The notes: a model not told the origin generated them from the sequence alone. 64,000 nt of DNA from Lachnospiraceae bacterium (GCA_017461045.1 JAFTZJ010000047.1:12218-76217), one strand, 5' to 3'; positions 11,455-60,253 are shown, numbered from the stretch's first letter. Numbers and translations are program-made.

Positions 11455-13362
11455 ATGATTTACAATTACCATTATGACATTGCAGCACTTATGCTGATTG
11501 TCTTATTGATTTCAATCTATTTTTTGCGACGCAATTATCCGACAACTGCCAACAAAGCATTTTTGGCGATATTATTCTTCACCTTCACTGCTACGGTTTC
11601 GGATTTATTAAGTGCACTCACCATTCCGAAGGCTGATGAAATCCCTCTTTTGATTAATTATCTGATTAATATTATATATTTAATCAGTTATAATTCTACA
11701 GCTATTGTATTCTATATTTATGTTACCATCATTACAAAACAGTATCACAAGCGGTATACCAGAATCAGTGCTTATATTGCTTTTTGCGTAAACTCATTTA
11801 TTCTCCTTCCAACACCATGGACTCATTGGGGAATTTATTTTGATGAGAATTTTCAATATCAACACGGAGTACTCTTTCCGCTGCTCTATGTTTCTTCATT
11901 CTTGATGCTTCTGAGCACCATTTATTTCTTTTTCCGATATCGATATAACTTAAGCCGCTATCAGGTAGTATCCGTATTATTCTTTACTATTGCCATGATT
12001 AGCGCTGTTGTTTTCCAGATGTTCTTTCCGGCACAGCTTGTCGGCTGTCTGGTTTCAACACTGTTTACAGTGTTGGTATACATATCCTTGCAGAATCCGG
12101 AATACTATATCAACAGCCGGAATCGTTGTTACAATGAACATGCACTTAATGAAACTCTGCAACATAATATACGACATGAGAAAAGCTTCTCGCTACTTGC
12201 ATTCTCTTTGGACGGTTTTCAATATGTAAACCAACTACTGGGCACGGATGCGGGCAATCACTTAATCGATTCCTTTGTTCCGTTTTTACATTCTAAATAC
12301 GGAATCAATAATGTTTATCAATTAAGCGATGGTCGTTTTGCTATTATGCTACCAGACAAAAATGAAAAACCGGTTACCCGGGAGCTATTACAATTCTTCC
12401 AAACCCCTCACACGGTTCAGAATGTAAATGTGTTATTGACTCCCCACATCTGCGTTGTCCACTATCCGGATTTCGCACATACACCGGAGGATATTATTAA
12501 TACTATTGACTACACATTAAAATACAGCCTTGCTTCCAATACAGAAAAGCACATTACTGCATCCAAAGATGAATTAAAGAAAAGTACCCGAGAAACACAG
12601 ATTCTTCATGCAATGAAAAATGCTATTCATAATCAAGGTTTTCAAGTATATTATCAACCGATTTTTAATGCGAAGACGAAAAAATTCTCTTCTGCCGAAG
12701 CATTGGTACGACTCTATGATCCGGAGCTTGGTTTTATTCCGCCGGACGAATTCATTCCAATGTCTGAACGTAATGGTATGATTATCGATATTGGTGAGCA
12801 GGTGTTCCGTCAGGTATGCCAATTTATCCAATCCCACGACCTGAAAGAACTCGGTTTGGATTACATTGAAGTAAATCTTTCCTTCGTACAATGTATTCAA
12901 AATAACCTCTCCCAGAGGCTTACAGAAATCATGAAGAAGTATGATGTATTACCCCAACAGATTAACTTCGAGATTACCGAAACCGCAGGATCAACCAAGG
13001 CAAATGCACTTCAGAAAAATATGAATGGTCTTATTCGGGTTGGTTCAACCTTTGCAATGGATGATTACGGAACCGGATTTTCCACTGCAAACTACCTTGT
13101 GAATCTGCCTTTGGAGTTTGTTAAAATTGATAAAAGTATCTTGTGGTCCGCTATGGCTGACGAACAAGCCTTTACCATATTAAAGCACACTGTGGAAATG
13201 CTCCATGCGCTGAATAAGAAAATCATCGTAGAAGGTGTGGAAACGGAAGAAATGGTAGACATGCTTACTGACATGAACTGCGAATATTTACAAGGCTATC
13301 TTTACTCAAAGCCGATTAATTCAGAAGAATTTGTTATTTTCTTACAAAACTATATTGCATAA
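11455..13362 (+). CDS. Membrane sensor, degenerate GGDEF, EAL-domain c-di-GMP phosphodiesterase
   Basis: 635 aa. A multi-TM N-terminus is followed by a GGDEF-like region in which SDGRFAIML replaces GGDEF. The EAL domain has EALVRL, DDYGTGFS, KIDKS and EGVE motifs. Confidence 0.85.
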   Translation: MIYNYHYDIAALMLIVLLISIYFLRRNYPTTANKAFLAILFFTFTATVSDLLSALTIPKADEIPLLINYLINIIYLISYNSTAIVFYIYVTIITKQYHKRYTRISAYIAFCVNSFILLPTPWTHWGIYFDENFQYQHGVLFPLLYVSSFLMLLSTIYFFFRYRYNLSRYQVVSVLFFTIAMISAVVFQMFFPAQLVGCLVSTLFTVLVYISLQNPEYYINSRNRCYNEHALNETLQHNIRHEKSFSLLAFSLDGFQYVNQLLGTDAGNHLIDSFVPFLHSKYGINNVYQLSDGRFAIMLPDKNEKPVTRELLQFFQTPHTVQNVNVLLTPHICVVHYPDFAHTPEDIINTIDYTLKYSLASNTEKHITASKDELKKSTRETQILHAMKNAIHNQGFQVYYQPIFNAKTKKFSSAEALVRLYDPELGFIPPDEFIPMSERNGMIIDIGEQVFRQVCQFIQSHDLKELGLDYIEVNLSFVQCIQNNLSQRLTEIMKKYDVLPQQINFEITETAGSTKANALQKNMNGLIRVGSTFAMDDYGTGFSTANYLVNLPLEFVKIDKSILWSAMADEQAFTILKHTVEMLHALNKKIIVEGVETEEMVDMLTDMNCEYLQGYLYSKPINSEEFVIFLQNYIA

Positions 13363-13415: not shown

Positions 13416-13489
<74 letters not shown>

Positions 13490-13564: not shown

Positions 13565-14911
13565 CTATAAATTCTCGCCATTCGTTTCAATGACTTCTTT
13601 ATACCAGTAACCGGAATCCTTAATGGTTCTTTCCTGCGTTAAAAAGTCCACATAAATTAGTCCGAAACGTTTATCATAACCAAGGGCCCACTCCATATTA
13701 TCCATAACAGACCATTGCATATAACCCTTAATCGGAATTCCATCCTCTGCTGCCCGGCGGTACTCCAGTAAGTAACGATGCAGGAAATCAATCCGATAGG
13801 TATCATGTACCTTACCATCTAAGTGAATCCAGTCCAAACCTGCCATACCATTTTCTGTAATCATAATTGGCAGACCATACCGCTCATACATGAACTTCGG
13901 TGACCAATACAAAACTTCCGGTGCAAGAGGCCAATCTACGTCGGTGTGTCCTCTTCCCTGCCAACGATTCTCCGGATACCCATCTCCCATCCGGTTGGCC
14001 TCAGAATAATACACGTTCATACCATAGAAATCCAAGGGCTGACTAATAAGCTTCATATCCTCTTCGCTATATACCGGCATATCATCGCCGAATAACTCGT
14101 ATGCCTCCTCCGGATATTTACCAAGAATCACCGGATCACTCCACCAGGTCAAACCGAATGTTAATCCCCGCTCCCGCATACTGAAGGTCTTTCTTCTTGC
14201 CTCTTCAATAGCTTCCTTAGAATCATTTTCCGGAATATAGACCGGTGCAATCGGGGCAAAGGAAATCTCTGCCTTGGTCTTCGCATGTTCCCGAATATAC
14301 TTTACGGCTTTACCGTGTGCAAGAAGCACATTATGAGTCATGGTAATCAAATCTTTTCGGTTCAACTGTAAAAATGGTGCATGGGTACCGGCTTCATATC
14401 CGCACCCGATAAAGCACTGTGGCTCATTAAAAGTAATCCAACAAGATACCCGGTCAGACAACGCATCCACAACCACCTTGGTATATTCTAAAAACCAATC
14501 GGAAGAGTCCGGATTCATCCAACCACCTTTCTGATATAATGCATATGGATAATCCCAATGAAATAGTGAAATCATTGGTTCAATTCCATTCGCCTTTAAT
14601 TCATCTACTAAATCCGAATAGAACTGTAAGCCCTTTGGATTCACTTCACCGGTTCCCTTTGCGATGACCCGAGGCCAACTAATAGAAAAACGGTAATACT
14701 TCAAACCCATTTCCTTCATCAAAGCTACATCTTCCTTATATCTGTGGTAATGATCACAGGCCACATCACCGGTTTCATTATACTTAATGATGCCTCTGTT
14801 TCTACCGCAAACATCCCAAACGCTTGGGCCTTTGCCATCTTCATTCCATGCGCCTTCTACCTGAAAAGCGGCAGACGCTGCTCCCCACATAAAATCCTTA
14901 CTAAATCCCAT
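13565..14911 (-). CDS. GH1 beta-glucosidase
   Basis: 448 aa with FMWGAASAAFQVEGA, the acid/base motif TFNEP and the nucleophile motif ITENG. It lies 34 nt downstream of the preceding ORF with no hairpin between, after SD GGAAAGGAGA. Confidence 0.9.
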   Translation of the reverse strand: MGFSKDFMWGAASAAFQVEGAWNEDGKGPSVWDVCGRNRGIIKYNETGDVACDHYHRYKEDVALMKEMGLKYYRFSISWPRVIAKGTGEVNPKGLQFYSDLVDELKANGIEPMISLFHWDYPYALYQKGGWMNPDSSDWFLEYTKVVVDALSDRVSCWITFNEPQCFIGCGYEAGTHAPFLQLNRKDLITMTHNVLLAHGKAVKYIREHAKTKAEISFAPIAPVYIPENDSKEAIEEARRKTFSMRERGLTFGLTWWSDPVILGKYPEEAYELFGDDMPVYSEEDMKLISQPLDFYGMNVYYSEANRMGDGYPENRWQGRGHTDVDWPLAPEVLYWSPKFMYERYGLPIMITENGMAGLDWIHLDGKVHDTYRIDFLHRYLLEYRRAAEDGIPIKGYMQWSVMDNMEWALGYDKRFGLIYVDFLTQERTIKDSGYWYKEVIETNGENL

Positions 14912-14945: not shown

Positions 14946-15974
14946 CTAAAGCAATGCTACTTCTGTTCCGATAACACCGTCTATTGTCACTTTTTGATCC
15001 CAAACTACCGAATACAACCTGCTGCCGTAATGAATGGTTTTCATTGAATCCAATGCCTCACACAATGGATTATTCTCAAAACCTCCCCAGAGCAACAACG
15101 CCACTCCTGCCTCAGCAGCTACGGAACGCAGAAAATCCTTACATAACTTTTTATCGCAATCCTTCACATACAGATACGAAATCACACCAAAATCAATATC
15201 ACTGTCCGCCTTTGGAAATGCCGGATATCCTAGCCACTGAGTCGGCAAATGTGATAATAGCTTATAGATTCCACTATACGAACACATATGATACTGCTTG
15301 TGCTGTTGCTGATTTCCAACAAAGCAGCAGGCAAGAATTTCTCCATCCCTGCGAACACAATAAAACCGCGTTTCTCCAAATCCGCCACAAGTATAATCCA
15401 CCGGAGTCAGGCTCTGCTTTGAAAAATAATTCTGCATCAACCCTTCCAATCCATCCGTATTATCCCTTTCCAGCTCTAAGATCCGTTTTCCGTTATGAAA
15501 ACAATAGGTCGTATAGTGTCCCAGATATTGATACTCCGGCATATTCTTATGCTTCTTTTCCAGAAGACGGATTGCAACTTCATTGTCATCCAGAATTGTG
15601 GTGTAATAACAATAACAGCCTTGAATATGTTCATACAAGAACTGATACGACTTAGCAATAAAGGTTGTCTTCTTCTGATAATCCGGATGAATCTTTAATC
15701 CGGTCAGATAACCACAGGTCTCCGCCTTACCATTTACGTATTCCTTTCGAAGCACCGCACCTCCCACTGCAATCACCTTCTGACATTCATTATCCCGAAT
15801 CACCATAATTCTGGATTCTCCGTCTGCCGAAAATGAGGCAAGGGGCAAGGGATTTCGAAGATACTTCACACTGATTCCGCCATCGAACCCACCGGCTTCG
15901 AATATCTCCCGGATACCTTCATTATCTTCACTTGTTGCAAATTCCAAGGTATATTTATTATTTTGGAAGTTCAT
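14946..15974 (-). CDS. Uncharacterised 342-aa protein, N-terminal GNAT-like core suspected
   Basis: The start is taken at MNFQNNKY (ATG 15972-15974, SD GGAGAG); the track ORF extends to 15998. The segment VIAVGGAVLRKEYVNGKAETCGYLTGLKIHPDYQKK resembles a GNAT beta4-alpha3 core. It overlaps the end of the upstream radical SAM gene. Confidence 0.45.
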   Translation of the reverse strand: MNFQNNKYTLEFATSEDNEGIREIFEAGGFDGGISVKYLRNPLPLASFSADGESRIMVIRDNECQKVIAVGGAVLRKEYVNGKAETCGYLTGLKIHPDYQKKTTFIAKSYQFLYEHIQGCYCYYTTILDDNEVAIRLLEKKHKNMPEYQYLGHYTTYCFHNGKRILELERDNTDGLEGLMQNYFSKQSLTPVDYTCGGFGETRFYCVRRDGEILACCFVGNQQQHKQYHMCSYSGIYKLLSHLPTQWLGYPAFPKADSDIDFGVISYLYVKDCDKKLCKDFLRSVAAEAGVALLLWGGFENNPLCEALDSMKTIHYGSRLYSVVWDQKVTIDGVIGTEVALL

Positions 15975-17289
15975 CCAAATTCTCTCCAATCGGTACATTC
16001 ATTTTCTGATCCACTTCTTCACCCAGTCGCAAATTCATTCCCCAGAACAATCCCCAAAGCAACGGACTGGTCCGTCCCAGAGAAGCAAATCCTCGACTTA
16101 ACACCGTCTTCGTAGATGCAAATTCCTTTCTTGCTCCGTGACACAGCTCACTTAATTTTTCCGGTGTCAGCAGCTTCGGACGGAATGCCAGCTCTCCATA
16201 ATTATAGCCTTCCTGCATCCACCATTTATCATAAAGCAACCGGTCATCCGCTTTCAACCGCTGATATAACGGAGTATTCGGGAACGGAAGCAAATGATTA
16301 AATGCCGCCGTATAAAAATTATGCTTCTTAGCAAAATTCAATGCATCCTCTATAGTGCCTTCATCATCATGGTCATAACCAAACACAAAGGTTGCATAAA
16401 TACCAATACCCGCATCGTGAATTCGTTTTACCAGCTCATCCCGTTCACCAAGTGCATAATTAAAGGACTTATTCATCTGCTTCAAATTCTCTTTATTCAA
16501 GCTTTCAAATCCAATGAGAATAATTTCACAGCCGCTCCGCTTCATGGCCTTTAACAGCTCCTCGTCTTTTGCCATAGACAAGGTTCCCTGTCCTGCCCAC
16601 TTAATCTTCAAAGGCTCGATCTCCCGGAAGATTCCCATGGCATTTTCCCGATTGGCTACTAAGTTATCATCTACCAAAAATGTATATTTATGCTGTGAAC
16701 GCCGAATGTCCTCTGCAATCAAGCTATGCTCCCGACAATAATACCGGCTGCAATAAAACTTTGAAATGGAACAAAATTCGCAGGAATGACAACAACCTCT
16801 TCCTGTCTCCACCAAGGATACCGGAAGATATTTCTTCCCCTCGAATATGCTTTTATCCGGTGCCACATCATACTCTCCGACACCACCCTGATACATCGGC
16901 TTCAATCTGCCCTGCTGTGCATCAGCAAGCATTTCCTTCCAAACCGTTTCTCCATTGCCTACCACAATACTGTCACAGTACTCCTGTGCTTCCTCCGGAC
17001 AAAGGGTGACATGATAGCCCCCCAGCACCACCGGAATTCCCCGTTCCCGGAATCGCTGTGCAATCCGATAGCTCCGCTTAGCCGTATAGGTTTCCACCGT
17101 AATACACACCAAGTCTGTCTGTGTATCGTATTGAATCAATTCGATACGGTCATCAAAGAATTCCGTTTCGATTTCCTTCGGCGTCAACGCCTTCAAAACC
17201 GCCATGGTAAGAGGCTCCATTTTCCATGTTCCAATATACTTTTTACCTGGTTTCTTTCCGATTGCCGGAAGTATATATGTTATCTTCAT
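15958..17289 (-). CDS. B12-binding domain radical SAM protein (paralogue 5, subfamily A)
   Basis: 443 aa. The N-terminal cobalamin-binding-type module is DLVCITVETYTAKRSYRIAQRFRERGIPVVLGGYHVT. The cluster motif is GRGCCHSCEFCS. The C-terminus has WWMQEGYNYGELAFRPKLLTPEKL. Confidence 0.85.
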   Translation of the reverse strand: MKITYILPAIGKKPGKKYIGTWKMEPLTMAVLKALTPKEIETEFFDDRIELIQYDTQTDLVCITVETYTAKRSYRIAQRFRERGIPVVLGGYHVTLCPEEAQEYCDSIVVGNGETVWKEMLADAQQGRLKPMYQGGVGEYDVAPDKSIFEGKKYLPVSLVETGRGCCHSCEFCSISKFYCSRYYCREHSLIAEDIRRSQHKYTFLVDDNLVANRENAMGIFREIEPLKIKWAGQGTLSMAKDEELLKAMKRSGCEIILIGFESLNKENLKQMNKSFNYALGERDELVKRIHDAGIGIYATFVFGYDHDDEGTIEDALNFAKKHNFYTAAFNHLLPFPNTPLYQRLKADDRLLYDKWWMQEGYNYGELAFRPKLLTPEKLSELCHGARKEFASTKTVLSRGFASLGRTSPLLWGLFWGMNLRLGEEVDQKMNVPIGENLDELPK

Positions 17290-17348
17290 TCTTCTTCCTC
17301 ATCATTTCTCATTGCTGAGCAATCACACAATATCTGCTACATCTAAGC

Positions 17349-18683
17349 CTACAACACCGGAATATCCGAGTTGTCACACATTACCTCTTTGGTAAACTTA
17401 TGCCATTTATCCGCATACCCCTTGTAACCCATATTCAAAGGGAACGCCAGCCACGGACTATGGTTAAATGGTGCCAACCGCTTCATAATGCTTGATGTGG
17501 AATAGGTCTCCCGCCATGCGCGCTCGGTTCCCTCTTCCAATTGCTCCTTCGTCATCTGTCGTGGTTGGAATACGCAATGCTCTACATCATACATCGCCCA
17601 GTTCCGTTCAATAATTCTGCCTTCCTGCTCCAACTGATTATAATACTGTGTCTTCGGGAACGGCGTTAAAATGGAATACCGAGGCAAATCAATTTTCGCC
17701 TTAATAACCGTTTCCACAGTCCGGTCAAATACGCTGGTATCTTCTTCATCTCCGCCAAATGCAAAACAACCCTGTACCAAAATTCCGTTGTCATGCAATT
17801 TCTTCATCAGTTCTATATAACCGTCCACACGGTTTACACCCTTGTTAATGTACTTTTGGGATTCCTGGGTAATGGATTCGAAGCCAATTAACAAACCACG
17901 GCAACCGCTCTTGCGGAATACCGTCATTAATTCATCATCGATTCCTACCGAAGAGGTTGCCAACCCCAGCCAAATTATTTTCAATGGAATCAGTGCCGTA
18001 AATAATTCAATGGCATACTTACGGTCAGTAATCAGATTTACATCCGGGAAGAGTACGTGCTTTGTATTCAACGCCTCGATTTCCGCTACAACCTCCTTTA
18101 CCGGACGCTTGTATACGGTACGGCCAAATGCCGCCGGATACGCACAGAAGGTACATGGCAGGGAACATCCCCGAATTGCTTCAACCGTCTTAGTGGTAAT
18201 ATATCGTTTCTTAGTCAGCAATTCCCGCCTTGGAATCGGCTTTCCTGCAATATCAAAATCACAGTTCTGGCGATACAGTTTCTGGTAATTTCCATTCACA
18301 TAATCATGAATAAATTGCGGGAAGGTCTGCTCTGAAAATCCGGTAAATACCACATCTGCATGCTGACCGGCTTCCTCCGGCATAAAGCTTGGGTGAACGC
18401 CACCCATAAATACCGTCTTGCCCTTCTTCCGAAAATAATCTGCATAGGCATAGCATCTCGGTGCGGTTCCGGTAATACAGGTAATTCCGATTAATTCCGC
18501 ATCAATATCCAATGGGATTTTTCCTGCGGTTTCATCATAAATCACCACATCAGCTTCCACATCCTCCGGTATCAAAGCCGCCAATGTAGTCAAAGTCAAC
18601 GGTGCATAATGAAGGGATTTGCCAAAGCTTCCCGAATATCTGTGCATAGCGCCTGCCGGTGCCAATAACGCAATTTTAATCAT
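17349..18683 (-). CDS. B12-binding domain radical SAM protein (paralogue 4, subfamily B)
   Basis: 444 aa with cluster motif IRGCSLPCTFCA, plus FPQFI and HCVFQPRQMTKEQL shared with paralogue 1. Confidence 0.85.
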   Translation of the reverse strand: MIKIALLAPAGAMHRYSGSFGKSLHYAPLTLTTLAALIPEDVEADVVIYDETAGKIPLDIDAELIGITCITGTAPRCYAYADYFRKKGKTVFMGGVHPSFMPEEAGQHADVVFTGFSEQTFPQFIHDYVNGNYQKLYRQNCDFDIAGKPIPRRELLTKKRYITTKTVEAIRGCSLPCTFCAYPAAFGRTVYKRPVKEVVAEIEALNTKHVLFPDVNLITDRKYAIELFTALIPLKIIWLGLATSSVGIDDELMTVFRKSGCRGLLIGFESITQESQKYINKGVNRVDGYIELMKKLHDNGILVQGCFAFGGDEEDTSVFDRTVETVIKAKIDLPRYSILTPFPKTQYYNQLEQEGRIIERNWAMYDVEHCVFQPRQMTKEQLEEGTERAWRETYSTSSIMKRLAPFNHSPWLAFPLNMGYKGYADKWHKFTKEVMCDNSDIPVL

Positions 18684-18704
18684 TTGTTTTCATTCCTTTC
18701 TGAT

Positions 18705-20246
18705 TCATTTATCCTCTTGCTGAAACCAGTCATCCCAGTTACTTTTCCTGCTTAAATGTGCCGGCTTAATGTCCCCCAGCCGCATTCCGTCTGCGGTCAT
18801 CCGTTTCAAATAATCCTGCTGTGGATTTCCGGAAACCAACCGAACCTCTGCCGACTGTAGCTGCCCCAAGCTTCTGCAATAATCATAATGATAGCTTGTA
18901 CGCAATGCCCGGTCCAAAGCCTCGTCCGTAACCGTCTGTGCCAAAGTGTACAGACAATACCGGTTTCCTTCCGGTGCAAGCAAATAGAAGGTATCCTGTA
19001 AGCCCAACTCTTCACCGATTTTTCGCAGGAATTCCTCCGTCAGTTTTTCTCCAAATAAGTCGCAGGTAATACCTTTTCGCCTTAAGAATCGTACTCTCGG
19101 TGGTGTATTTTCATATACCTCCAGTACCTCTATCATGTCTCCCAGACAATACCGGTAGAATCCTCCTCCGGTTGTAACAATTACCTCATAAACACCCTTC
19201 TGTAACTGATGGGTCAAATAAATCTGCTCATCCTCCACACTTCGAAATTCAAAGAAATGAGAATATAAGCTAAGCCTGCTGCCTTCCTCCCCCACAAGCG
19301 GGAAGGATACAAAACACTCTGTTGCAAGTAAGCCCTTAGGCTGAATGTATGTATTAGGAAAATATTCCCGTACCTGCTTGACAGAATCCGCTGCACTTCC
19401 GTCTGCCCAGCAGCTAATAATCTTAAGATGAGGAAATACCTGTTCCCACCGGTTATGACGAATAGCATCGGCAATACTTTTTCCGGATTCTCCTGCCGAT
19501 TGCTCCAATTCCGGCACTTGTGAAACAAGCTCCTCCACATGTTCTCTTATAAAATCACATAATATAGTTAAAAATGTAGGATTCCACACGGAAATCAATG
19601 TAAGCTCCTTACATCCCAGTAATTCCGTTGCTGTCCGCATATAAAAATCATCCATGTCAGACGAGAATTTTACCTTAGAAGAAACGGCAAATATCCGTTT
19701 CATAATTCCCTGTTCAAGTACTCCAAAGTACTCTGCATCTTCTTCAAAACCAATGGGAATTCCGGATTCCGTATAGCTTTTACCGGCTGTTACCGGTGTA
19801 ATGGACCAGTAGCTTTTTCCCTGACATACACCCTCAACTTTATTATAAATATCATATAGCCAAGGCTTAATTCCTTTTTGAAATTCCTGCTTCAAGGACT
19901 TGGTATAAGGAATCAGTTTCTTCCCGCTGGAGGAACCGCTGGTTAACTCTAACAGCATTACCGGCTCCTTCGTCAGAACCTTCTGTTTTCCTCCACAGAT
20001 GTCCTCAATATATGGTTCATAATCCTCATATACCGTTAAGGGCACCTGCTTTGCAAAGTCCTCATAGCTTCGTATCTCTCCGAATCCATATTTCTTTCCA
20101 TAATCCGTATCTGCATTCCGCCGGAGAAGTGCCAACAAATAATCCTCCTGTACCGATTTCGGATTACAGTCTGCCATAAAATGCCGATATTCATTTCCAT
20201 AGAATCCTTTGCAAATCTGATTACAAATCCGGCTTCCTACACTCAT
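18705..20246 (-). CDS. GH3-family (auxin-responsive GH3-like) adenylate-forming amido synthetase homologue
   Basis: 513 aa. YGKKYGFGEIRSYEDFAKQVPLTVYEDYEPYIE and the P-loop-like LELTSGSSSGKKLIPYT match the bacterial GH3 family pattern as I remember it. There is a 4-nt ATGA-type overlap with the upstream ORF. Confidence 0.75.
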   Translation of the reverse strand: MSVGSRICNQICKGFYGNEYRHFMADCNPKSVQEDYLLALLRRNADTDYGKKYGFGEIRSYEDFAKQVPLTVYEDYEPYIEDICGGKQKVLTKEPVMLLELTSGSSSGKKLIPYTKSLKQEFQKGIKPWLYDIYNKVEGVCQGKSYWSITPVTAGKSYTESGIPIGFEEDAEYFGVLEQGIMKRIFAVSSKVKFSSDMDDFYMRTATELLGCKELTLISVWNPTFLTILCDFIREHVEELVSQVPELEQSAGESGKSIADAIRHNRWEQVFPHLKIISCWADGSAADSVKQVREYFPNTYIQPKGLLATECFVSFPLVGEEGSRLSLYSHFFEFRSVEDEQIYLTHQLQKGVYEVIVTTGGGFYRYCLGDMIEVLEVYENTPPRVRFLRRKGITCDLFGEKLTEEFLRKIGEELGLQDTFYLLAPEGNRYCLYTLAQTVTDEALDRALRTSYHYDYCRSLGQLQSAEVRLVSGNPQQDYLKRMTADGMRLGDIKPAHLSRKSNWDDWFQQEDK

Positions 20247-20941
20247 CCAAATAACATCCCCAATACTGCCTTCTTCAACAGTTCTTTATCAATCTTTGCC
20301 ACGCAGGCCAAATCATTTCCATTCATATATTCCGGATTGCGTTCCACAAAATAAGCTACGTCCTTATTTTTCAACTCCCGCTCACCAATATCTGCTACGC
20401 CATCCTTTAATTTGTCTTTCACAGACCGGTATTCGATTACACCGGTTGCCGGATTGTATTCCTCCGGATACAATAAGGTGGCATAGGCATCTATAATCTT
20501 CTGCTCGTATTCCGGCGTTGCTGTTTTCCGGTTCGGATAAAACTCCGTCCAGAACAAAGGAAGAATCCGATAGGTCTTATATCCCTTGCAAATCAGGAAC
20601 CAATAGAACTCCTCATACTGCCGGGCATATTCAAACCAGAATCTTGCCCAGACTTTAAAAAGCTCAATATCTCCCCAGTAATCCTTATGAATAATCGTGT
20701 CACCGGAGAACATTCCATGAACGGTCTTCCCGTCTATATTCAAGTCTACTAACTTCTGTGTAGTAAATCCAACCAGACCTCCGGTGTCATGGTGCAAGAC
20801 CAGACAATAATCTTTTTCGAAAAAATCTCTTCGGAACACCTCTTCTTTGACATTGTCATAGAAGGTATTCATCAGCGTATACATTTCTGCAATCTCTGTT
20901 TCTGTATATTCTCCAATTGGTTTTATCTGACCTTTTAGCAT
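20243..20941 (-). CDS. Uncharacterised 232-aa protein (acyltransferase-like fold suspected, unverified)
   Basis: The start is taken at MLKGQIKP (ATG 20939-20941) after SD GGAGGTG; the track ORF extends to 20971. There are no TM segments. CLVLHHDTGGLVGFTTQ resembles a GNAT-type strand-turn, but I cannot assign a family. Confidence 0.4.
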   Translation of the reverse strand: MLKGQIKPIGEYTETEIAEMYTLMNTFYDNVKEEVFRRDFFEKDYCLVLHHDTGGLVGFTTQKLVDLNIDGKTVHGMFSGDTIIHKDYWGDIELFKVWARFWFEYARQYEEFYWFLICKGYKTYRILPLFWTEFYPNRKTATPEYEQKIIDAYATLLYPEEYNPATGVIEYRSVKDKLKDGVADIGERELKNKDVAYFVERNPEYMNGNDLACVAKIDKELLKKAVLGMLFG

Positions 20942-20998
20942 GTTTCCACCTCCGAATCCAACCTGCTCCAATAACTTTTCCGACCTTGCTGGTTCTAC

Positions 20999-22333
20999 TT
21001 ATTTTAATCCAAACTTCATACCCTGCTTCTTAAATACTTCCTTTCGAAATAATGGGTTATATACTAAATATGTTCCAAATCGATACGGGGTCCGCATATT
21101 GGTTCGCGGCTCCAATGCCCGTTTTACAATGGACATGGGACTATTAAATCTGCGTCTGCAATCAAAAGATATCTCCGTCAATTCATCCGGTGACATATTC
21201 TTTGGCAGAATACTGCAGTAGTTAAAACGATAGTCCTCATGCAACCACCATTTTCCATCGTATAACAGTCGTCCTTCCTGCTCCATCTTACGATATAACG
21301 GCGTATTCGGATAGGGCATCAAAATGTTAAATGCCGCAAAAGTAAACTTATTCCGGATTGCAAAATCGCAGGTTGCCTTAATAGACTCCATGGTGTCTCC
21401 GTCGTGTCCAACGGTAAAAGCCGCCCAGGTCTGCAAGCCCCACTTTCTTAACTGTTCAATCTCTTCGGCATACATTTCACCGGAACCCTTTTTATTGGTG
21501 TGCTTATTCATTTCCGAAATACATTCCGGAGAAATGGACTCAAATCCGATTACCAGTCCCAGACAACCGCTTTTCACCATCAGCTTCATCAATTCCGGAT
21601 CATTTAACATATCCATACTTCCCTGACTAACCCAGTGAATTTTCAATGGTATCAAGGCACGGAATAACTCCTTCGCTTTTTCCCGGTTACAGACAATATT
21701 GTCGTCCACGAAAAATAACAGTTTCCGTTTCTGAGCCTTGATTTCTGCCACTACATCTTCTACCGGACGGCAGTAATGATGTGCCTTAAAATATACCGAT
21801 GAGGCACAGAAACTGCAGCTATGGTTACAGCCTCTGGAAAACTGTAGTAAAGTAATTGGTAAATATCCCTTTCCCTCGAAAATATCCCGGCGGGTAATTA
21901 CATTTATCTGGGGGCATTCCGGCTGAACCGCATCATACCGTTTCTGAAGCGTTCCCGCTCTACAATCCTCTACCATTTCCTTCCAAACCGGTTCTGCGTC
22001 ACCTACGATAACACAATCGCAATGCTCTGCAACTTCCTCCGGTATCAGCATGGCATGCATGCCACCCATAACCGTTTTCACTCCCCGGCGACGAAACTCG
22101 GCACTAATTTCATAGGCCCGTCTTGCCGTAAAGGTCTCCACTGTAATCGCTACCAAATCTGTAGGTTCATCATAGGGAATTTCCTCCATACGGTCATCAT
22201 AGAGAACCACTTCCACATCCTCCGGTGTCAACGCTGCAAGGATTCCAAGCTGTAACGGCTCCATTCTTGCCTCATCAACATAAAGGCTGTGTTCCCGTCT
22301 TCCGATATTCGGTTTAATCAACGTCAGTTTCAT
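20999..22333 (-). CDS. B12-binding domain radical SAM protein (paralogue 3, subfamily A)
   Basis: 444 aa with cluster motif SRGCNHSCSFCA and C-terminal WWLHEDYRFNYCSILPKNMSPDEL. It overlaps paralogue 2 by 20 nt. Confidence 0.85.
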   Translation of the reverse strand: MKLTLIKPNIGRREHSLYVDEARMEPLQLGILAALTPEDVEVVLYDDRMEEIPYDEPTDLVAITVETFTARRAYEISAEFRRRGVKTVMGGMHAMLIPEEVAEHCDCVIVGDAEPVWKEMVEDCRAGTLQKRYDAVQPECPQINVITRRDIFEGKGYLPITLLQFSRGCNHSCSFCASSVYFKAHHYCRPVEDVVAEIKAQKRKLLFFVDDNIVCNREKAKELFRALIPLKIHWVSQGSMDMLNDPELMKLMVKSGCLGLVIGFESISPECISEMNKHTNKKGSGEMYAEEIEQLRKWGLQTWAAFTVGHDGDTMESIKATCDFAIRNKFTFAAFNILMPYPNTPLYRKMEQEGRLLYDGKWWLHEDYRFNYCSILPKNMSPDELTEISFDCRRRFNSPMSIVKRALEPRTNMRTPYRFGTYLVYNPLFRKEVFKKQGMKFGLK

Positions 22334-23633
22334 TCAATATTCCTCCAAGCATCTGTCCCTGTTTCGCATGGATTTCCTTTCGGGAAATCACATTTACCAA
22401 CAAGAACACCACAAAGTTCCAAGGCAGAAAATGAATCGGATTCGCAAAGAACCGCTTCAATACACATTTCGGCGAATAGAATTGTGTTCGAATCCGCAAG
22501 CATCCATCCCGTAATTCCTCCGGTGTCATGTTCCTCGGCTGATACGCCGTCTCTCCATAACGATACCGGTCGGACAACCACCACTTCTTATATAACAACC
22601 GACCTTCCTGCTCCATGCGGTCATATACCGGTGTCCCCGGCATAGGAATCAGCGGATTAAAATTCGTCACTGCCAAATGATTCCGCACAGCGAATTCAAA
22701 GGTTTTATCAAATACTTCTTTATCATCATGGTCATAACCAAATACAAAGGTTCCGTAAATCAACATCTTATGACGGTAAATTCTCTGAATCACTTCATCA
22801 TAATTCCCCGCCGCCTTATTCGCCGATTTTTTCATAGTTGTAAGGCTCTCCGGATTCAGGCTCTCGAAGCCCAACAATACCAGAAAACAACCGGATTTCT
22901 TCATTTCTGCTAACAGCTCATCATCCTGTGCCACATCCATACTAATCTGGCAAGCCCATTTTTTCTTAAGAGGCGCCATCTTACGGAACAGTTCAATAGC
23001 AGACTGACGGTCATAGAATAAATTATCATCTACAAAGAAAATGATTTTTTCCTTAGCCTGACTTAATTCCTGCACCACATCCTCTGCCGACTTTCTACGA
23101 ACCTGCTTGTACATGGTCTTAATGGAACAAAAGTCACAATTGAACTTACACCCTCTGGAAATCTGATAAACACCAATGCCATAATATTTATGCTTATAAA
23201 CACTCTTATCCTCTACTAAGGCTTTTAACTCACCGGATTCCCCGGAGATATATTGTGGCTTTGGATTTCCCTTTTCACAATCTCTTAAAAATGGTTCCCA
23301 GGTATCTTCCGCATCTCCCACAATAACAGAGTCAGCATACTGCAAGCACTCCTCCGGCATAACCGTTGGGTGAAATCCACCCATAACAATAATGTTATGT
23401 TCCGTCTTATACTTCTTCGCCAGAATGTAAGCCCGTTTTGCCGTATAAGTCTCCACCGAAAACGCAATAACATCGGAGTCAATTTTCTCCGGTAATTTCT
23501 CCGCCCGCTCGTCGATAAATTCAATCTCGAATTCCTTCGGCGTTAAACTCTTTATAATGCCGAACAACAACGGCTTCATAGCGTCTGAGCTGATGTGTTC
23601 GAACATATTTAATCGAATAAATGTAATTTTCAA
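22314..23633 (-). CDS. B12-binding domain radical SAM protein (paralogue 2, subfamily A)
   Basis: 439 aa with cluster motif SRGCKFNCDFCS and C-terminal WWLSDRYRYGETAYQPRNMTPEEL. It has an ATGA overlap with paralogue 1. Confidence 0.85.
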   Translation of the reverse strand: MKITFIRLNMFEHISSDAMKPLLFGIIKSLTPKEFEIEFIDERAEKLPEKIDSDVIAFSVETYTAKRAYILAKKYKTEHNIIVMGGFHPTVMPEECLQYADSVIVGDAEDTWEPFLRDCEKGNPKPQYISGESGELKALVEDKSVYKHKYYGIGVYQISRGCKFNCDFCSIKTMYKQVRRKSAEDVVQELSQAKEKIIFFVDDNLFYDRQSAIELFRKMAPLKKKWACQISMDVAQDDELLAEMKKSGCFLVLLGFESLNPESLTTMKKSANKAAGNYDEVIQRIYRHKMLIYGTFVFGYDHDDKEVFDKTFEFAVRNHLAVTNFNPLIPMPGTPVYDRMEQEGRLLYKKWWLSDRYRYGETAYQPRNMTPEELRDGCLRIRTQFYSPKCVLKRFFANPIHFLPWNFVVFLLVNVISRKEIHAKQGQMLGGILNETDVD

Positions 23634-24931
23634 TGCTTATATCCCTTATCAATTCCTAAAAACTTAAATCCAATATTTGCTCCCAACAGAATGAACACAT
23701 AGAAATTCTTCCGCCAAGGAGAGGAAAATGTCCGTTTCAAAACCCGCTTCCAGCTAAAGGCTTCCTTCCATACTTTACGGTAGATTTCATCTAACCGCTC
23801 CGGAGACATATTCACCGGCTGAAATACTGTATGGTGCTGATTATACCGGCTCCAATCGTGAGTAATAATGCGTCCTGCTGCCTCATATTCCTGATAGAAT
23901 CTGGTTCCCGGATATGGTGTCAGAATTGCAAACCGGCACAAGTCCAATCCCAGATTCGTTACCCGATCCGGAAGCGACAACAGTTCTTCTTCTATATCTT
24001 GGTCAAAGCCTAATACAAAACAACCATTTACCGCAATTCCATGCTGATGAAGATTATCAATAATCTCTACATACTTATCTGCATCATGAAACCGCTTTGC
24101 TGCTTTGGTTAGGGACTGACTGTTTACGGACTCTAATCCAATTAGTACACCTCGGCAACCACTCTCATATGCCGCCTGCATCAGTTCATGGTCATATCCA
24201 AAATCCGCCGTAGCATTGGACGCCCATAGAATCTTCAGAGGCTTCATAGCCTCCATCAGTTCCAGTGCATACTCTCGATTTCCAAAGAAATTCGGATCGT
24301 AGAATATTACCATCTTGGACTTTAATTCTTTCAATTCCGCAATTACATTTTCTACCGGGCGAGGATTGCTGTTCCACATAGTTCGCATGGAACAGTATTT
24401 ACAACAATTATCACAACCTCGGTTTGCAACAATTGCCGGAATCTTCAGCTTCTTTCGCTTCGTAATCTTGTCTCTTGCCGGAATCGGAAATTCCGCCGCA
24501 CAGACATCATAATTTTTATATCGCTTCTCAGGCTTGCCTTCCTTGAAATCCTTAATAAATTGCGGAATGGATATCTCTGCCGGTCCGATAATTACCGTAT
24601 CACAATGCTCTGCAACCTCATCCGGCAGGGCTGTTGCATGATAGCCGCCACATACTACATATGCACCACGAGCTTTGAATTCCTTACAATGCTTATATGC
24701 CGTAAAGCTGGATGATGTCTCAAAAGAAATCATCACCAGGTCATAATGCTCTTTATCATATTGTACAATCTGGGAATTTTCATCAACCACATCGATTTGT
24801 TCAAATACACCCTCCGGAATTAAGGAATACAATGTAGCAAGAGTTAAAGAAGGATAAGAAAGTAGACTTGAAAATTTACCTCTATAAGAATTCTCATTTT
24901 CGTTCCATGCATGTAACATTAGTAGCTTCAT
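23630..24931 (-). CDS. B12-binding domain radical SAM protein (paralogue 1, subfamily B); first gene of the operon
   Basis: 433 aa with cluster motif NRGCDNCCKYCS, plus IPQFI and HTVFQPVNMSPERL. SD GGGGGA lies 7 nt upstream of the ATG. Confidence 0.85.
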   Translation of the reverse strand: MKLLMLHAWNENENSYRGKFSSLLSYPSLTLATLYSLIPEGVFEQIDVVDENSQIVQYDKEHYDLVMISFETSSSFTAYKHCKEFKARGAYVVCGGYHATALPDEVAEHCDTVIIGPAEISIPQFIKDFKEGKPEKRYKNYDVCAAEFPIPARDKITKRKKLKIPAIVANRGCDNCCKYCSMRTMWNSNPRPVENVIAELKELKSKMVIFYDPNFFGNREYALELMEAMKPLKILWASNATADFGYDHELMQAAYESGCRGVLIGLESVNSQSLTKAAKRFHDADKYVEIIDNLHQHGIAVNGCFVLGFDQDIEEELLSLPDRVTNLGLDLCRFAILTPYPGTRFYQEYEAAGRIITHDWSRYNQHHTVFQPVNMSPERLDEIYRKVWKEAFSWKRVLKRTFSSPWRKNFYVFILLGANIGFKFLGIDKGYKH

Positions 24932-24979
24932 AATTTATCCCCCGCGTTTGTTCCTTTTATCATAAAGTACTTATTAGTT

Positions 24980-25008
24980 ATCATAGCATAGTTCGGAAGT
25001 TCCCTCAA
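24980..25008 (-). promoter_or_regulatory. Putative promoter of the radical SAM operon
   Basis: The minus strand reads TTGAGG, a 17-nt spacer, then TATGAT with TG at -15/-14. It sits about 50 nt upstream of the first ATG. Confidence 0.3.
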
Positions 25009-25030
25009 CTTTTTGTATATAGAAACGCAC

Positions 25031-25115
25031 GGCTCATCATTATATAATTTGCCCCCTCGCGACTTCGTCGCTCGGCTCATCATTATATAATTTGCCCCTC
25101 GCGACTTCGTCGCTC
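25031..25115. repeat. Tandem direct repeat, two units (43 and 42 nt)
   Basis: GGCTCATCATTATATAATTTGCCCC(C)TCGCGACTTCGTCGCTC occurs twice back-to-back, and the units differ by one C. Each unit carries a GCGAC-TTC-GTCGC mini-hairpin. Confidence 0.9.
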
Positions 25116-25121
25116 GGTGAT

Positions 25122-25232
25122 GCGAAGTTCGCCACATGGAACCGCAAGCGCTTCCATGCTTTCCCACAGGACGAAACAAGCACTTTTTCATGCCAGCATG
25201 AAAGTGCCTGTTTTCGCCCTGTGGCGAACTTC
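25122..25232 (-). other. Structured element: 13-bp closing inverted repeat enclosing two hairpins
   Basis: GAAGTTCGCCACA (25124-25136) pairs with TGTGGCGAACTTC (25220-25232). Inside are CATGGAA/TTCCATG (25135-25158) and a long imperfect hairpin (25164-25192 / 25197-25224). The mismatches in the long hairpin become G-U pairs only on the minus-strand RNA. Confidence 0.6.
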
Positions 25233-25324
25233 TTGTCGCTTACGTGTCCGCACGGCTCATTTTTATGCAAAATAAAAGCCCCAACCCAACAGCTCTTACG
25301 TCTGTCAAACTAGGACCTTTTCAG

Positions 25325-25397
25325 TGCGCCTCCGGGGGCTCGAACCCCGCACACCCTGATTAAGAGTCAGGTGCTCTACCAAATGAGCTAGAGGCGC
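25325..25397 (-). tRNA. tRNA-Lys (anticodon CTT)
   Basis: Hand-folded 73-nt cloverleaf. Acceptor GCGCCTC/GAGGCGC, anticodon stem CCTGA/TCAGG with loop CTCTTAA, T-arm CGGGG-TTCGAGC-CCCCG. Confidence 0.85.
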
Positions 25398-26300: not shown

Positions 26301-27992
26301 TTAGTCTAATTGGAAGGCTCCTACAGTTTCTACAATACCATCTGCAATGCCCTTTAATGCTTCTGCTGCCTCTGTTACATCATTGAAGCTGTTTGCAACT
26401 TCTGTGGTTGCTGCTGACGTTTCTTCTGTACTTGCAGCATTTTCTTCTGCAATAGCACTTAGGTTTTCAACTAATTCGATAATTTCTTCTTTCGCAATAT
26501 TCAACTGATTACTCTGTTGTTCAATTGAAGAAATAGCCATAATAGATTCTTCAATACTCTGAATTACTTCATCTACAATTCGCTCGGTTTCTTCTACGTT
26601 CTTACTCTGCTCTAATACGATTCCCTGTACACGCTGCATGGTTTCTACTGCCATATTCGAATCATAAATCAATTCACTAATCATATCTGCAATGGCACTT
26701 GTAGATGTACCGGACTGCTCTGCCAAACGCTGAATCTGATTTGCTACTACTGCGAAACCACGACCCTGCTCGCCTGCACGTGCAGCTTCAATAGAAGCGT
26801 TCAATGATAACAAGTTCGTTTCGTCTGAAATGCTACTAATAATGTTTGTTACTTCTTTAATCTTAAGGGAAGACTCATTGGTACGATTGGTCTGCTGATA
26901 AATCTGATCAATCGCTGCCATAACCTCATCATTTACCTGCTTTAATTCATGTAAAGACTGGGTTGCCTGACTACTTGCATCCTTCATCATCTGTGCATTG
27001 TTCAACAAGTGCTCGATTTCCGAATTGGTTGCTGCTAACATTTCACCCATCATGGTTACATTCTCTGTGGTACGAACTGCATCTTTTGCCTGTGCATTTG
27101 CACCATCTGCAATTTCATTTACTGCACGCTCAACATGGTCTACAGTATTCAATGTTTCCTGTGCATTATTATCCAATGTATCTGCAGAACTTAAGAGGGA
27201 TTGTGCATGACTGTTCAAGTCACCAATGATGTAACGTAACTCATCCTTCATGCCATTTACTGCACGGCAAAGTTCTCCGATTACATCATTTCTGTCCATA
27301 TACTTTGAATCAATTTCTACTGCTAACTGACCGGCTGCAACTGCTTTTACTGCTTGTGTTCCGGCTTCAATTGCCCGACTGATATTACCTGCTGATACAC
27401 TTGCTACAATAATGAAAATGATAAAGCTCAAGATTACTGCTGTTACAATAATTACCAAAATGGTATTATACAAAAGATTTTCCTGTGCTACCGGTGAAGC
27501 AGCAAATACAATACCGATTATTTCATCACTGTTATACTGGTAAACTGGAGCATAGTATCCATAATATTTCTCTTCGTTAATTTCAATATTCTTTAAGAAA
27601 AGTGTTTCTCCGCCTAGTACCTTTTCGGCAATTTCTTTATCAATCTCCAAACCTAACACTCTTCTTCCCTCTGCATCCACAATGGATGTCATGATTTCAC
27701 GGGAACCAAAGTAAAATGTTACGTCTACACCGGAATTTGCCTTAATTCCGTCTACCAGTGCTTCCGACTCATTAATCTTATAAGCGCCCTTGTAAATAGC
27801 GCCGGTCATGTTTTGAGAGTACTCTCCTACGTTCTGGTCATATGCTGCGATATAGGCCGCCGCAATACCTTTCAAATTCATCTCGATATCATCTGTCAAA
27901 CGACTTTTAATTACTGTCACGGTTAGTAACAAAATCGCAATACCCATTACTAAAATCGGCATAATTGACAGCCTCATAATTCTAGCTTTCAT
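26301..27992 (-). CDS. Methyl-accepting chemotaxis protein
   Basis: 563 aa. Layout is TM, a roughly 170-aa extracellular sensor, TM, HAMP, then the MCP signalling domain ([27 protein letters not shown]). Confidence 0.9.
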
Positions 27993-46852: not shown

Positions 46853-47575
46853 TTATTGTAATGGCGTCTTCGACGCAGTTCCTGCTTTTCTTGGATAAGC
46901 CTTCGGTGTTAGTCCAATCTTTTCAATCATTACAAACTGTCTTACAATATCCGTATCCGGCAACTGCTTTTCTTCTACATTCCGGATTTTTCCTCCAAGG
47001 ATTTTAACTGCTTTCTTTGACTGTTGTAACTCTTCCTCAATCTGAGATGATTTATAGGAAACGAAACACCCATTCTTCTTAACAAAAGGCAAACAATATT
47101 CACTTAAGGTAGAAAGATTTGCGACCGCTCGGGAAACACACAAATCAAATTGTTCCCGATACTCCTGCTTTCTGGCACCTTCTTCCGCTCTTGCATGAAC
47201 TGCTTCAATATCCGTAAGTCCCAGTTCTTCAATTACTTCATTTAAGAACTTTACACGCTTATTCAAAGAATCCAATAAGGTAATCTTCAAGTTCGGATAT
47301 GCAATCTTCAACGGAATACCCGGAAAACCGGCTCCGGTTCCCACGTCAATCACAGACAAATCACCGGATAAATCCATAACCGTTCCCAGCAGAATACTAT
47401 CTAGAAAATGTTTATCAATGACTTCCTCATATTCCGTAATTGCAGTTAGGTTCATTACCTTATTCTTCTCAATCAACATTTCATAATAAGTTTGAAACTG
47501 CTGACATTGTTGCTCAGTTAATACAATTTGCAATTGTTCTGCTTTTATTTGTAGCTCTTTCATATTACGCTCCAA
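46853..47575 (-). CDS. rsmG: 16S rRNA (guanine527-N7)-methyltransferase
   Basis: 240 aa with [15 protein letters not shown] and the conserved position after mnmG. Confidence 0.9.
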
Positions 47576-49433: not shown

Positions 49434-49450
49434 ACTACTACGCTTCCTTC

Positions 49451-50830: not shown

Positions 50831-50882
50831 TTGACTCCTCCTTTCTTTCTTATCAAATCACTCATTTTCGTATCCACCATTT

Positions 50883-50931
50883 ATAAAAAATAGCGAATGC
50901 AAAATAAGCAATGTCCTTATTTTGCATTCGC
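50883..50931 (-). terminator. Terminator after jag
   Basis: 16-bp stem GCGAATGCAAAATAAG / CTTATTTTGCATTCGC, followed by TATTTTTT on the minus strand. Confidence 0.7.
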
Positions 50932-50955
50932 CTTCTTGTTCAAGTATGCCTTTGC

Positions 50956-51588: not shown

Positions 51589-51590
51589 CT

Positions 51591-52865: not shown

Positions 52866-52876
52866 ATTAACCTCCT

Positions 52877-53098
52877 TTATGGAACCGGATCATATCCACC
52901 CCTGGAGAACGGGTTACACCGAAGAATTCGCCAAGCTGCAAGCAAGATGCCTTTCCATACGCCATATTTTTGAATTGCTTCTATTGCATACTGGGAACAC
53001 GTCGGATAAAATTTACAAGTTCCATGACCCTTTAAGGGTGACAAAAAAATCTGATAAAAACGAATCAACTTCAAACATATTTTTTTCATACACATCAT
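52877..53098 (-). CDS. yidD: Membrane protein insertion efficiency factor YidD
   Basis: [15 protein letters not shown] and [12 protein letters not shown]. The start is uncertain among three N-terminal Met codons. Confidence 0.9.
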
Positions 53099-53121
53099 CT
53101 CTTTGATTATTATTCAAATAT

Positions 53122-53466: not shown

Positions 53467-53485
53467 TTTTCTTACCTATACAAAT

Positions 53486-53511
53486 AATCTCACAGCGAAA
53501 ACTGTGAGATT
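53486..53511 (-). terminator. Hairpin between rpmH and rnpA (possible attenuating terminator)
   Basis: AATCTCACAG / CTGTGAGATT with a 6-nt loop. Confidence 0.45.
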
Positions 53512-53537
53512 ATGCTATACTCGCTATTAATTGCGAA

Positions 53538-56935: not shown

Positions 56936-56946
56936 GGAGATACCAT

Positions 56947-57156: not shown

Positions 57157-57165
57157 GATACATAT

Positions 57166-60236: not shown

Positions 60237-60253
60237 GGAATGGAGGAACAAAC

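Follow-up and report, generated by a model that had tools for sequence, protein, structure and literature searches.

A conserved gene cassette of gut Clostridia joining a GH3-family protein with B12-domain radical SAM enzymes: a possible route to tailored N-acyl amides

Introduction

What does a bacterium make with an operon in which a GH3-family adenylating enzyme is encoded amid five radical S-adenosylmethionine (SAM) enzymes? The question is raised by a 64,000-nucleotide (nt) stretch of DNA, in the following the window, from a metagenome-assembled genome (MAG) labelled Lachnospiraceae bacterium (GCA_017461045.1, JAFTZJ010000047.1:12218-76217), for which PGAP gives generic gene names only. 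Eight tightly packed open reading frames (ORFs) lie there head to tail on the minus strand, from 24931 to 14946, and are called here in order of transcription rS1, rS2, rS3, U232, GH3, rS4, rS5 and tandem GNAT (Table 1). A first-pass annotation had taken them for a biosynthetic system that joins a carboxylic acid to an amine and modifies the conjugate in up to five radical SAM steps. Bacterial GH3 proteins are common and almost unstudied, the sole characterised case that we found being OlsH, published in 2025, which catalyses the ATP-dependent N-acylation of ornithine with fatty acids (PMC12493201).

Here we report that U232, GH3, rS4, rS5 and the tandem GNAT form the invariant core of the cassette, that U232, GH3 and the tandem GNAT (the trio) recur together in other phyla, and that the operon may first build and then tailor a hydrophobic N-acyl amide, a reading to which we give an even chance.

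Results

To define which genes belong to the system, one genome per GTDB species was scanned with U232; 98 species were positive and 80 loci were fetched. Nearly all of the loci come from MAGs of gut or rumen that carry the label Oscillospiraceae, Ruminococcus or Lachnospiraceae; the hosts include ruminants, horse, rabbit, mouse and human, and the one cultured isolate among the carriers is Ruminococcaceae bacterium P7. The gene order is conserved across these approximately 80 loci from independent genomes, with the full order rS1-rS2-rS3-U232-GH3-rS4-rS5-GNAT in about 43 of them. Variation is found upstream of U232: at least 10 loci lack rS1 although they are otherwise complete and extend far enough upstream, two loci carry rS1 only, two have other divergent radical SAM genes, and one consists of the bare U232-GH3-rS4-rS5-GNAT core. 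No complete locus lacks rS4, which also applies to the Citrobacter, Planctomycete and soil versions described below, and rS5 always follows rS4. The invariant core is U232-GH3-rS4-rS5-GNAT, and rS1-rS3 are accessory. As these three are variably present, the idea of up to five iterative radical SAM steps describes this genome and not the system, in whose core only rS4 and rS5 are found.

Comparison with the nearest relative gave ratios of nonsynonymous to synonymous substitution (dN/dS) of 0.013–0.11 for the operon genes, with synonymous sites near saturation. The lowest values belong to rS4 (0.013), rS3 (0.021) and rS5 (0.026), which are also more constrained than the adjoining GH1 gene. The CX3CX2C and GGxH motifs are invariant in all orthologues of all five paralogues (51–72 each, 51 for rS1), except for two ambiguous X positions. 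Intact motifs together with low dN/dS argue for working genes and not for decaying paralogues without synteny, the outcome which the first-pass annotation had named as speaking against its proposal. No flanking gene is conserved beside the 80 Clostridia clusters, so the cassette appears to be self-contained; neither is a transporter or regulator, an ABC-type protein being encountered in only 7 of the 80 loci. Inside the cluster of the window there is no transporter, regulator, precursor peptide or riboswitch, the absence of the first three having been noted already when the sequence was first read.

All three Pfam domains of the GH3 family were found in the GH3 protein above the cutoff of 23.6 bits each (GH3_N 156.3, GH3_M 49.3 and GH3_C 24.2 bits), in line with the original assignment. 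Plant GH3 structures are matched at an E-value of 1e-17, with the 4-substituted benzoate-glutamate ligase GH3.12 among the PDB matches, and the nucleotide motifs TSGSSxGxKxIPYT (P-loop-like) and YRYxxGD are conserved in 73 sequences. Judged from its sequence, the protein can be regarded as a bona fide member of the GH3 family.

U232 had been left unplaced, and indeed no Pfam or NCBIfam model matches it. In a global library its family comprises 1644 clusters of 50% identity at E ≤ 1e-3 and 517 at E ≤ 1e-30, so that U232 would be the founding member of a large family without a Pfam model. (Near-)invariant in this family are an SGDT motif, a (Y)W..(L)..KG..T(Y) block and one Cys near the C-terminus, which in the protein of the window is C213. 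The AlphaFold2 (AF2) model of U232 (pLDDT 86) retrieved exclusively GNAT proteins in Foldseek, at E-values of about 1e-4 and template-modelling (TM) scores of 0.3–0.43, which weakly suggests a GNAT-fold acyltransferase-like protein; a weak Acetyltransf_9 match is present in only 2 of 38 family members. A relationship between U232 and the tandem GNAT was not supported, as hhalign found no significant similarity of their profiles. A metagenome scan with a diverse U232 alignment gave at least 600 matches, and all metagenome counts refer to the matches listed. In 38 of the 47 metagenome loci having at least 1 kb of downstream sequence, U232 is directly followed by GH3, and two representatives are U232-GH3 fusion proteins, which argues that the two proteins act together. 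Of all the genes, U232 is thus the one most closely tied to GH3, apparently as an obligate partner. Fused domains occur in the U232 family members P0314 (470 amino acids, aa), P0368 (786 aa) and P0392 (726 aa), two of them with GH3 and one with an Lnb_N periplasmic domain.

For the last protein of the operon, a GNAT domain was established by sequence (Acetyltransf_1 27.6 bits, cutoff 20.7) as well as by fold, so both of the proteins once considered unassignable are now GNAT-like, U232 by a weak fold match. The AF2 model of the 342-aa protein (pLDDT 88.6) shows two fused GNAT lobes, and its best full-length PDB matches in Foldseek are N-myristoyltransferases (NMTs; E 1e-11, TM 0.57–0.62 over approximately 370–390 columns). 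According to the model it most resembles a tandem-GNAT acyltransferase with an NMT-like fold. The C-terminus E-x-A-L-L is kept in about 60 of 64 orthologues and also in the Citrobacter (EIALL) and Planctomycete (EVALL) proteins. NMTs use their own C-terminal carboxylate as the catalytic base, and by analogy an NMT-type base in the tandem GNAT may be taken as a lead.

The five paralogues rS1-rS5 all belong to the radical SAM superfamily, since Radical_SAM (PF04055) is matched with 50.7–70 bits (rS1 61.6, rS5 50.7) against a Pfam cutoff of 29.5. They had been described throughout as B12-binding, which holds by the gathering score of PF02310 (32.1 bits) for rS2, rS4 and rS5 (34.8–40.2 bits; rS2 40.2, rS5 36.0), with rS1 (29.6 bits) and rS3 (30.3 bits) falling slightly short of it. 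DUF4070, a further domain suggested for checking, passes its Pfam cutoff in rS2 (27.9 bits) and in none of the other four. The two subfamilies first separated by eye carry the motifs quoted for them, and the split is real but shallow, with identities of 37% for rS1/rS4 and 38–41% for rS2/rS3/rS5 compared to 29–35% between the groups. rS1 and rS2 have conserved hydrophobic C-terminal tails, and rS3 is extremely conserved, its orthologues showing a mean pairwise identity of 83%. The closest solved structure is AprD4 (E 4e-13 to 4e-11, the former for rS4), which is labelled in NCBIfam as a diol-dehydratase rather than a methylase. AprD4 has a B12-binding-type domain but is not known to need cobalamin, and cobalamin use and methylation chemistry of rS1-rS5 are putative. 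None of the named class B equivalogs was reached (HpnJ, BchE, PhpK, HpnR, ladderane radical SAM, AprD4, ApyD, Mmp10-type and TsrM), the best NCBIfam equivalog scores being 60–97 bits against cutoffs of 251–750, so no paralogue belongs to any curated equivalog. Radical SAM homologues of about 30% identity on Treponema and Clostridium plasmids were uninformative, as they stand in unrelated contexts (among others a thiazole/oxazole-modified microcin (TOMM) cluster). A role in anti-phage defence was also discarded, the PADLOC match being a single weak generic radical SAM hit (rS2, 24.9 bits).

Beyond Clostridia, tblastn of U232 against plasmids retrieved proteobacterial homologues. The IncFIB/FII plasmid NZ_CP134684 of Citrobacter portucalensis encodes at approximately 51.4–63.5 kb the order U232-GH3-rS4-rS5-GNAT-rS2-rS3-PAP2-hypothetical, followed by a convergent, translationally coupled pair of a fatty-acid desaturase and a sixth B12-domain radical SAM gene. 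Its location implies that a pathway of anaerobe type reached the Enterobacteriaceae by horizontal transfer; of 5,426 E. coli genomes, none had a copy of the cassette. The plasmid is mobilizable, and the full cassette on it comprises six radical SAM genes. Identity of the Citrobacter proteins to those of the window is 24–35% for U232, GH3 and GNAT and 42–59% for the radical SAM enzymes, with rS3 reaching 59%. This far stronger conservation of the radical SAM proteins across phyla suggests that they recognise an invariant part of the molecule, and the ligating enzymes (GH3, U232 and GNAT) may vary in their substrate choice.

In Acinetobacter baumannii (NZ_CP064203, 1,508–1,518 kb) the genes of the trio are interspersed with those of a tripartite HlyD-MFS-OEP efflux pump and no radical SAM gene is present, suggesting from the gene arrangement that the product is exported. 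An amidase gene precedes trio and pump and a SurE-like phosphatase gene follows them; a full-text search returned no paper on this trio. In Burkholderia, U232 and GH3 are accompanied by a tandem GNAT (hhalign probability 84%) and a Rieske/VanA_C oxygenase, and a Phycisphaerales (Planctomycete) genome shows rS4-rS5-GNAT-U232-GH3-ICMT/PEMT, the last being a methyltransferase gene. Two architectures recur in the metagenome loci: the trio U232-GH3-GNAT, which stands alone in many of them, and the five-gene core, in which rS4-rS5 are inserted and which is carried by soil and sediment metagenomes. The co-occurrence of GH3 with at least three B12-domain radical SAM genes, which had been proposed as a signature to be sought in Clostridia, is widespread there; the system itself is not specific to them and sometimes lacks radical SAM genes altogether. 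From these distributions the trio appears to be a cross-phylum module. The richest aerobic version encountered is the soil metagenome locus L090 (approximately 780–13933) with at least 10 tightly packed genes, in the apparent order Rieske oxygenase, small membrane protein, U232, GH3, tandem GNAT, a 903-aa RnfD-like/FG-GAP protein, two desaturases, an AurF-like protein and a membrane protein.

Within the window the eight same-strand ORFs were found where the first-pass annotation had placed them. rS1/rS2 and U232/GH3 overlap by 4 nt, rS2/rS3 by 20 nt (22314-22333) and rS5/GNAT by 17 nt (15958-15974), and gaps of 57, 21 and 59 nt separate rS3/U232, GH3/rS4 and rS4/rS5, in support of the earlier view of a single co-directional set with translational coupling. 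Of the two ATGA overlaps reported earlier, the one at 20243-20246 is a true ATGA and the one at 23630-23633 reads TTGA, as rS2 has a TTG start. A strong ribosome-binding site, GGAGGTGG, precedes the ATG of U232 at 20941. No prominent terminator-like site was detected within the operon, where their counts equal the shuffled expectation, and no riboswitch or known RNA upstream of it, the only Rfam matches in the window being three tRNAs. The promoter-like site (TTGAGG-17-TATGAT with an upstream TG, approximately 50 nt ahead of rS1) is a consensus match only and weak evidence, since shuffling predicts just as many such sites for the region.

The operon is chromosomal, with dnaA-dnaN-recF-gyrB-gyrA and jag-yidC-mnmE-mnmG 25–45 kb away beside a GC-skew switch. 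In this replication-origin region mnmG, mnmE, jag and yidC are on the minus strand and dnaA, dnaN, recF, gyrB and gyrA on the plus strand, and the skew changes its sign near 53–54 kb of the window; the distance of the operon from oriC is thus approximately 30 kb, and its transcription runs in the same direction as the replication of that arm. A GH1 beta-glucosidase gene (TIGR03356, 501 bits) starts 34 nt past the last operon gene on the same strand and may therefore be co-transcribed here. It was rejected as a cluster member, since apart from the window only the closest relative (L004) has it beside the cluster. Two tRNA genes bracket operon and GH1 gene, tRNA-Lys directly upstream of the operon and tRNA-Pro directly downstream of GH1. 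The tRNA-Lys gene is preceded by a good promoter-like site (TTGCAA-17-TATAAT), and a 43-bp tandem repeat, which is not conserved in related loci, lies between it and the operon. Further out, the region is flanked by genes for a GGDEF-EAL cyclic di-GMP (c-di-GMP) protein and a methyl-accepting chemotaxis protein, neither of them conserved beside the cluster elsewhere.

Table 1. Operon genes and surrounding features, with positions counted from the first letter of the window.
Feature	Position	Strand	Description
rS1	23630..24931	-	433 aa; accessory B12-domain radical SAM paralogue; CDNCCKYC
rS2	22314..23633	-	439 aa; accessory B12-domain radical SAM paralogue; TTG start; CKFNCDFC
rS3	20999..22333	-	444 aa; accessory radical SAM paralogue; CNHSCSFC
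U232	20243..20941	-	232 aa; divergent, possibly GNAT-fold-like; without Pfam model
GH3	18705..20246	-	513 aa; putative GH3-family adenylating acyl-acid amido synthetase
rS4	17349..18683	-	444 aa; core radical SAM enzyme; CSLPCTFC
rS5	15958..17289	-	443 aa; core radical SAM enzyme; CCHSCEFC
Tandem GNAT	14946..15974	-	342 aa; GNAT acyltransferase, predicted N-myristoyltransferase-like fold
Promoter-like site	24980..25008	-	upstream of rS1
87-aa ORF	24928..25191		spurious
Tandem repeat	25026..25117		43 bp, 2.2 copies, 96% match
tRNA-Lys(CUU)	25324..25397		
tRNA-Pro(CGG)	13416..13489		
GH1 beta-glucosidase	13565..14911	-	outside the cluster
GGDEF-EAL protein	11455..13362		flanking gene
Methyl-accepting chemotaxis protein	26301..27992		flanking gene
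Replication-origin region	46853..62818	both	mnmG to gyrA

Discussion

An acid-amine conjugate tailored by radical SAM enzymes, as originally suggested, remains the most economical reading of the cassette, and it is strengthened by the lipid-type neighbours of the trio in other phyla. We favour, at the even odds given above, a functional operon whose product is a hydrophobic N-acyl amide of the aminolipid or lipoamino-acid type. As expected from its family, GH3 would adenylate a carboxylic acid with ATP, most likely a fatty acid, and couple it to an amine. U232 would work physically with GH3, as the fusions suggest, and may present the acceptor or carry the acyl group on its invariant Cys. The NMT-like tandem GNAT could then perform a further N-acyl transfer, perhaps with its C-terminal carboxylate as the base as in NMT. 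rS4 and rS5, and in this genome likewise rS1-rS3, would finally carry out oxygen-independent radical chemistry on unactivated carbons, for which methylation, cyclisation and cross-linking are candidates, and might fill the role of the Rieske, desaturase and diiron oxygenases that stand beside the trio in aerobes.

The nature of these neighbours was assessed in 30 metagenome loci that span at least 5 kb and contain no radical SAM gene. Among them an RnfD-like/FG-GAP/ASPIC membrane protein is encoded in 12, PAP2_3 in eight and FA_desaturase in seven and five (two families), and small membrane proteins are also recurrent. Desaturases, PAP2 phosphatases, ICMT/PEMT and the efflux pump as neighbours favour a hydrophobic, probably fatty-acyl, amide as the product, and the NMT-like fold, the OlsH precedent (PMC12493201) and the hydrophobic tails of rS1 and rS2 point in the same direction. 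The invariant unit would be the ATP-dependent amide synthetase together with its two GNAT-like partners, and the variable unit the C-H-functionalising enzymes, which are oxygenases and desaturases in presumably aerobic lineages and radical SAM enzymes only in the strictly anaerobic gut Clostridia.

Several observations weigh against a lipid product and against the functions assigned above. A Rieske/VanA_C oxygenase stands beside the trio more often than any other neighbour (18 of the 30 loci), and a SnoaL-like protein with a membrane segment (12 of 30) and an AurF-like diiron protein (5 of 30) recur as well; for these families, lipids are less usual substrates than aromatic acids or small polar amines. 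The cluster in the window has itself no membrane protein, acyl carrier protein, fatty-acid enzyme or exporter. Orthology of its GH3 protein to OlsH had to be rejected, as the OlsH model is matched with 47.6 bits against a cutoff of 620 and only over the N-terminal residues 22-118. The assignment of U232 as a GNAT protein is weak (TM 0.3–0.43), and the non-NMT mycobacterial tandem GNAT MAB_4324 (7q3a) matches the 342-aa protein about as well as the NMTs do. The likeness to NMT is structural only (TM approximately 0.6), no NMT or NMT_C Pfam match being found at E up to 0.01, and a PDB profile search with the tandem GNAT retrieved generic GNATs at E 0.016 or worse and no NMT.

The main rival is an aromatic or small-acid substrate, which stays in play because Rieske/VanA_C, AurF-like and SnoaL-like partners are so frequent. 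The cassette would then join a non-lipid acid, either aromatic or plant-derived (phenylacetate, indole-3-acetate or benzoate type) or small and polar, to an amino acid or amine, and the product might be a soluble signal, a detoxification product or an antibiotic-like small molecule. This would agree with the plant GH3 enzymes, which act on indole-3-acetic acid (IAA), jasmonate and benzoates, and with GH3.12 among the PDB matches, whereas the NMT-like fold speaks for a long-chain acyl donor. The hosts inhabit guts in which plant fibre is degraded, and a GH1 beta-glucosidase gene follows the operon, but the latter is kept only in the closest relative and therefore stands outside the system. The efflux context in A. 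baumannii suggests an exported molecule; against a polar one, however, FA_desaturase, PAP2/PAP2_3, ICMT/PEMT and integral membrane partners recur. On balance we consider a non-lipid conjugate unlikely.

Modification of a macromolecule appears quite improbable to us. The tandem GNAT would acylate the N-terminus or a lysine of a protein or peptide, and the radical SAM enzymes would C-methylate or cross-link a peptide encoded elsewhere, similar to lipidation or to the biosynthesis of ribosomally synthesised and post-translationally modified peptides (RiPPs). The best structural matches of the tandem GNAT are indeed protein N-myristoyltransferases, and the very high conservation of rS3, rS4 and rS5 would fit such a substrate; yet a conserved small ORF or a precursor gene was found neither within the cluster, whose intergenic gaps do not exceed 59 nt, nor next to it, and conserved flanking genes, a peptidase, a leader-binding protein and a transporter are lacking as well. 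Among the B12-domain radical SAM proteins are RiPP enzymes, namely ApyD and the TIGR03975 family, but they score weakly here and no RiPP family cutoff in NCBIfam was approached. As a precursor we rejected the 87-aa ORF upstream of rS1, which is created by the overlapping 43-bp tandem repeat and has no conserved counterpart.

Least probable in our view is that rS4 and rS5 act before GH3 and supply an unusual acid or amine building block for ligation by GH3 and the GNATs, without any tailoring role: their genes lie between those of GH3 and GNAT and are the most constrained of the operon, and the closest solved relative AprD4 is a diol-dehydratase according to NCBIfam and not a methylase, but the trio occurs without radical SAM genes in many organisms, so the scaffold can be made without them, which agrees better with tailoring than with the supply of a precursor. 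A link to the membrane-spanning-lipid synthase MSS and diabolic acids was also dropped, because the respective paper offers no domain or sequence link to the cassette family.

Coming back to the hydrophobic N-acyl amide, a bolder version is possible though doubtful: the trio could represent a pathway, overlooked so far and shared between phyla, to bacterial amide lipids of a new class. An NMT-like acyltransferase of prokaryotes, a GH3 enzyme and a dedicated GNAT-fold partner would make these lipids, and in anaerobes two to five B12-domain radical SAM enzymes would modify them by oxygen-independent C-C or C-methyl chemistry. If so, such lipids could be abundant unassigned membrane components of gut and rumen Clostridia or host-active N-acyl amides. 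Already a lipid or N-acyl amide as product would mean a new pathway in dominant organisms of the herbivore and mouse gut and new radical SAM chemistry on lipids.

Independent of the product, the trio represents a conserved genetic partnership for a large branch of bacterial GH3 proteins. Among the Clostridia of the mammalian gut and rumen, as many as five radical SAM enzymes have joined the trio in approximately 100 species, and purifying selection on them is very strong. New here are the fold assignments for both unplaced proteins, tentative in the case of U232, the separation of core from accessory genes and the trio as a cross-phylum module. With Ruminococcaceae bacterium P7 and the Citrobacter IncF plasmid for the cassette, and the clinically important species A. 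baumannii for the trio, tractable hosts are at hand.

Comparison with known systems

In agreement with the first-pass annotation, which could recall no characterised pathway of this composition, we found no curated family model, solved-structure relative or paper describing it; the full-text literature search, in part poorly targeted, gave no paper on a cluster of GH3 and B12-domain radical SAM genes. The radical SAM paralogues share with BchE/HpnJ-type enzymes the N-terminal B12-binding-type domain, the CX3CX2C radical SAM core and a DUF4070-like C-terminus, and this type is the best NCBIfam match of four of the five, alongside PhpK, the ladderane-lipid radical SAM protein, MJ_1487 and AprD4. 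Unlike true members they score 60–97 bits against cutoffs of 251–600, so their chemistry is not inferable from the likeness. Like the eukaryotic NMTs, the tandem GNAT carries two GNAT lobes in one chain of approximately 340–390 aa and a hydrophobic C-terminus ending in Leu, but there is no similarity at the sequence level.

N-acyl amides are made by GNAT-fold proteins in bacteria, including gut Clostridia (for the latter see PMC12493201). The N-acyltransferases for N-acyl amino acids and aminolipids (OlsB and the gut N-acyl synthases) have a GNAT-like fold as here, whereas neither U232 nor the 342-aa protein matches their Pfam and NCBIfam models, and amide formation in the window would by analogy also involve the ATP-dependent GH3, unlike in OlsB and the gut N-acyl synthases.

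The small operon for OlsH, OlsI and OlsG of Singulisphaera acidiphila leads to a membrane aminolipid (PMC12493201) and, like the cassette, places a GH3-family enzyme beside a second acyl-transferring enzyme and a tailoring enzyme. Its partner is the alpha/beta-hydrolase OlsI and its tailoring enzyme the N-methyltransferase OlsG, in contrast to two proteins of probable GNAT fold and B12-domain radical SAM enzymes in the window. Neither an OlsI-type alpha/beta-hydrolase O-acyltransferase nor the methyltransferase OlsG is encoded in the window operon, and a counterpart of U232 is absent from the Ols operon. The parts of the cassette come from known superfamilies, and its logic of ligating, acylating and tailoring is a familiar one.

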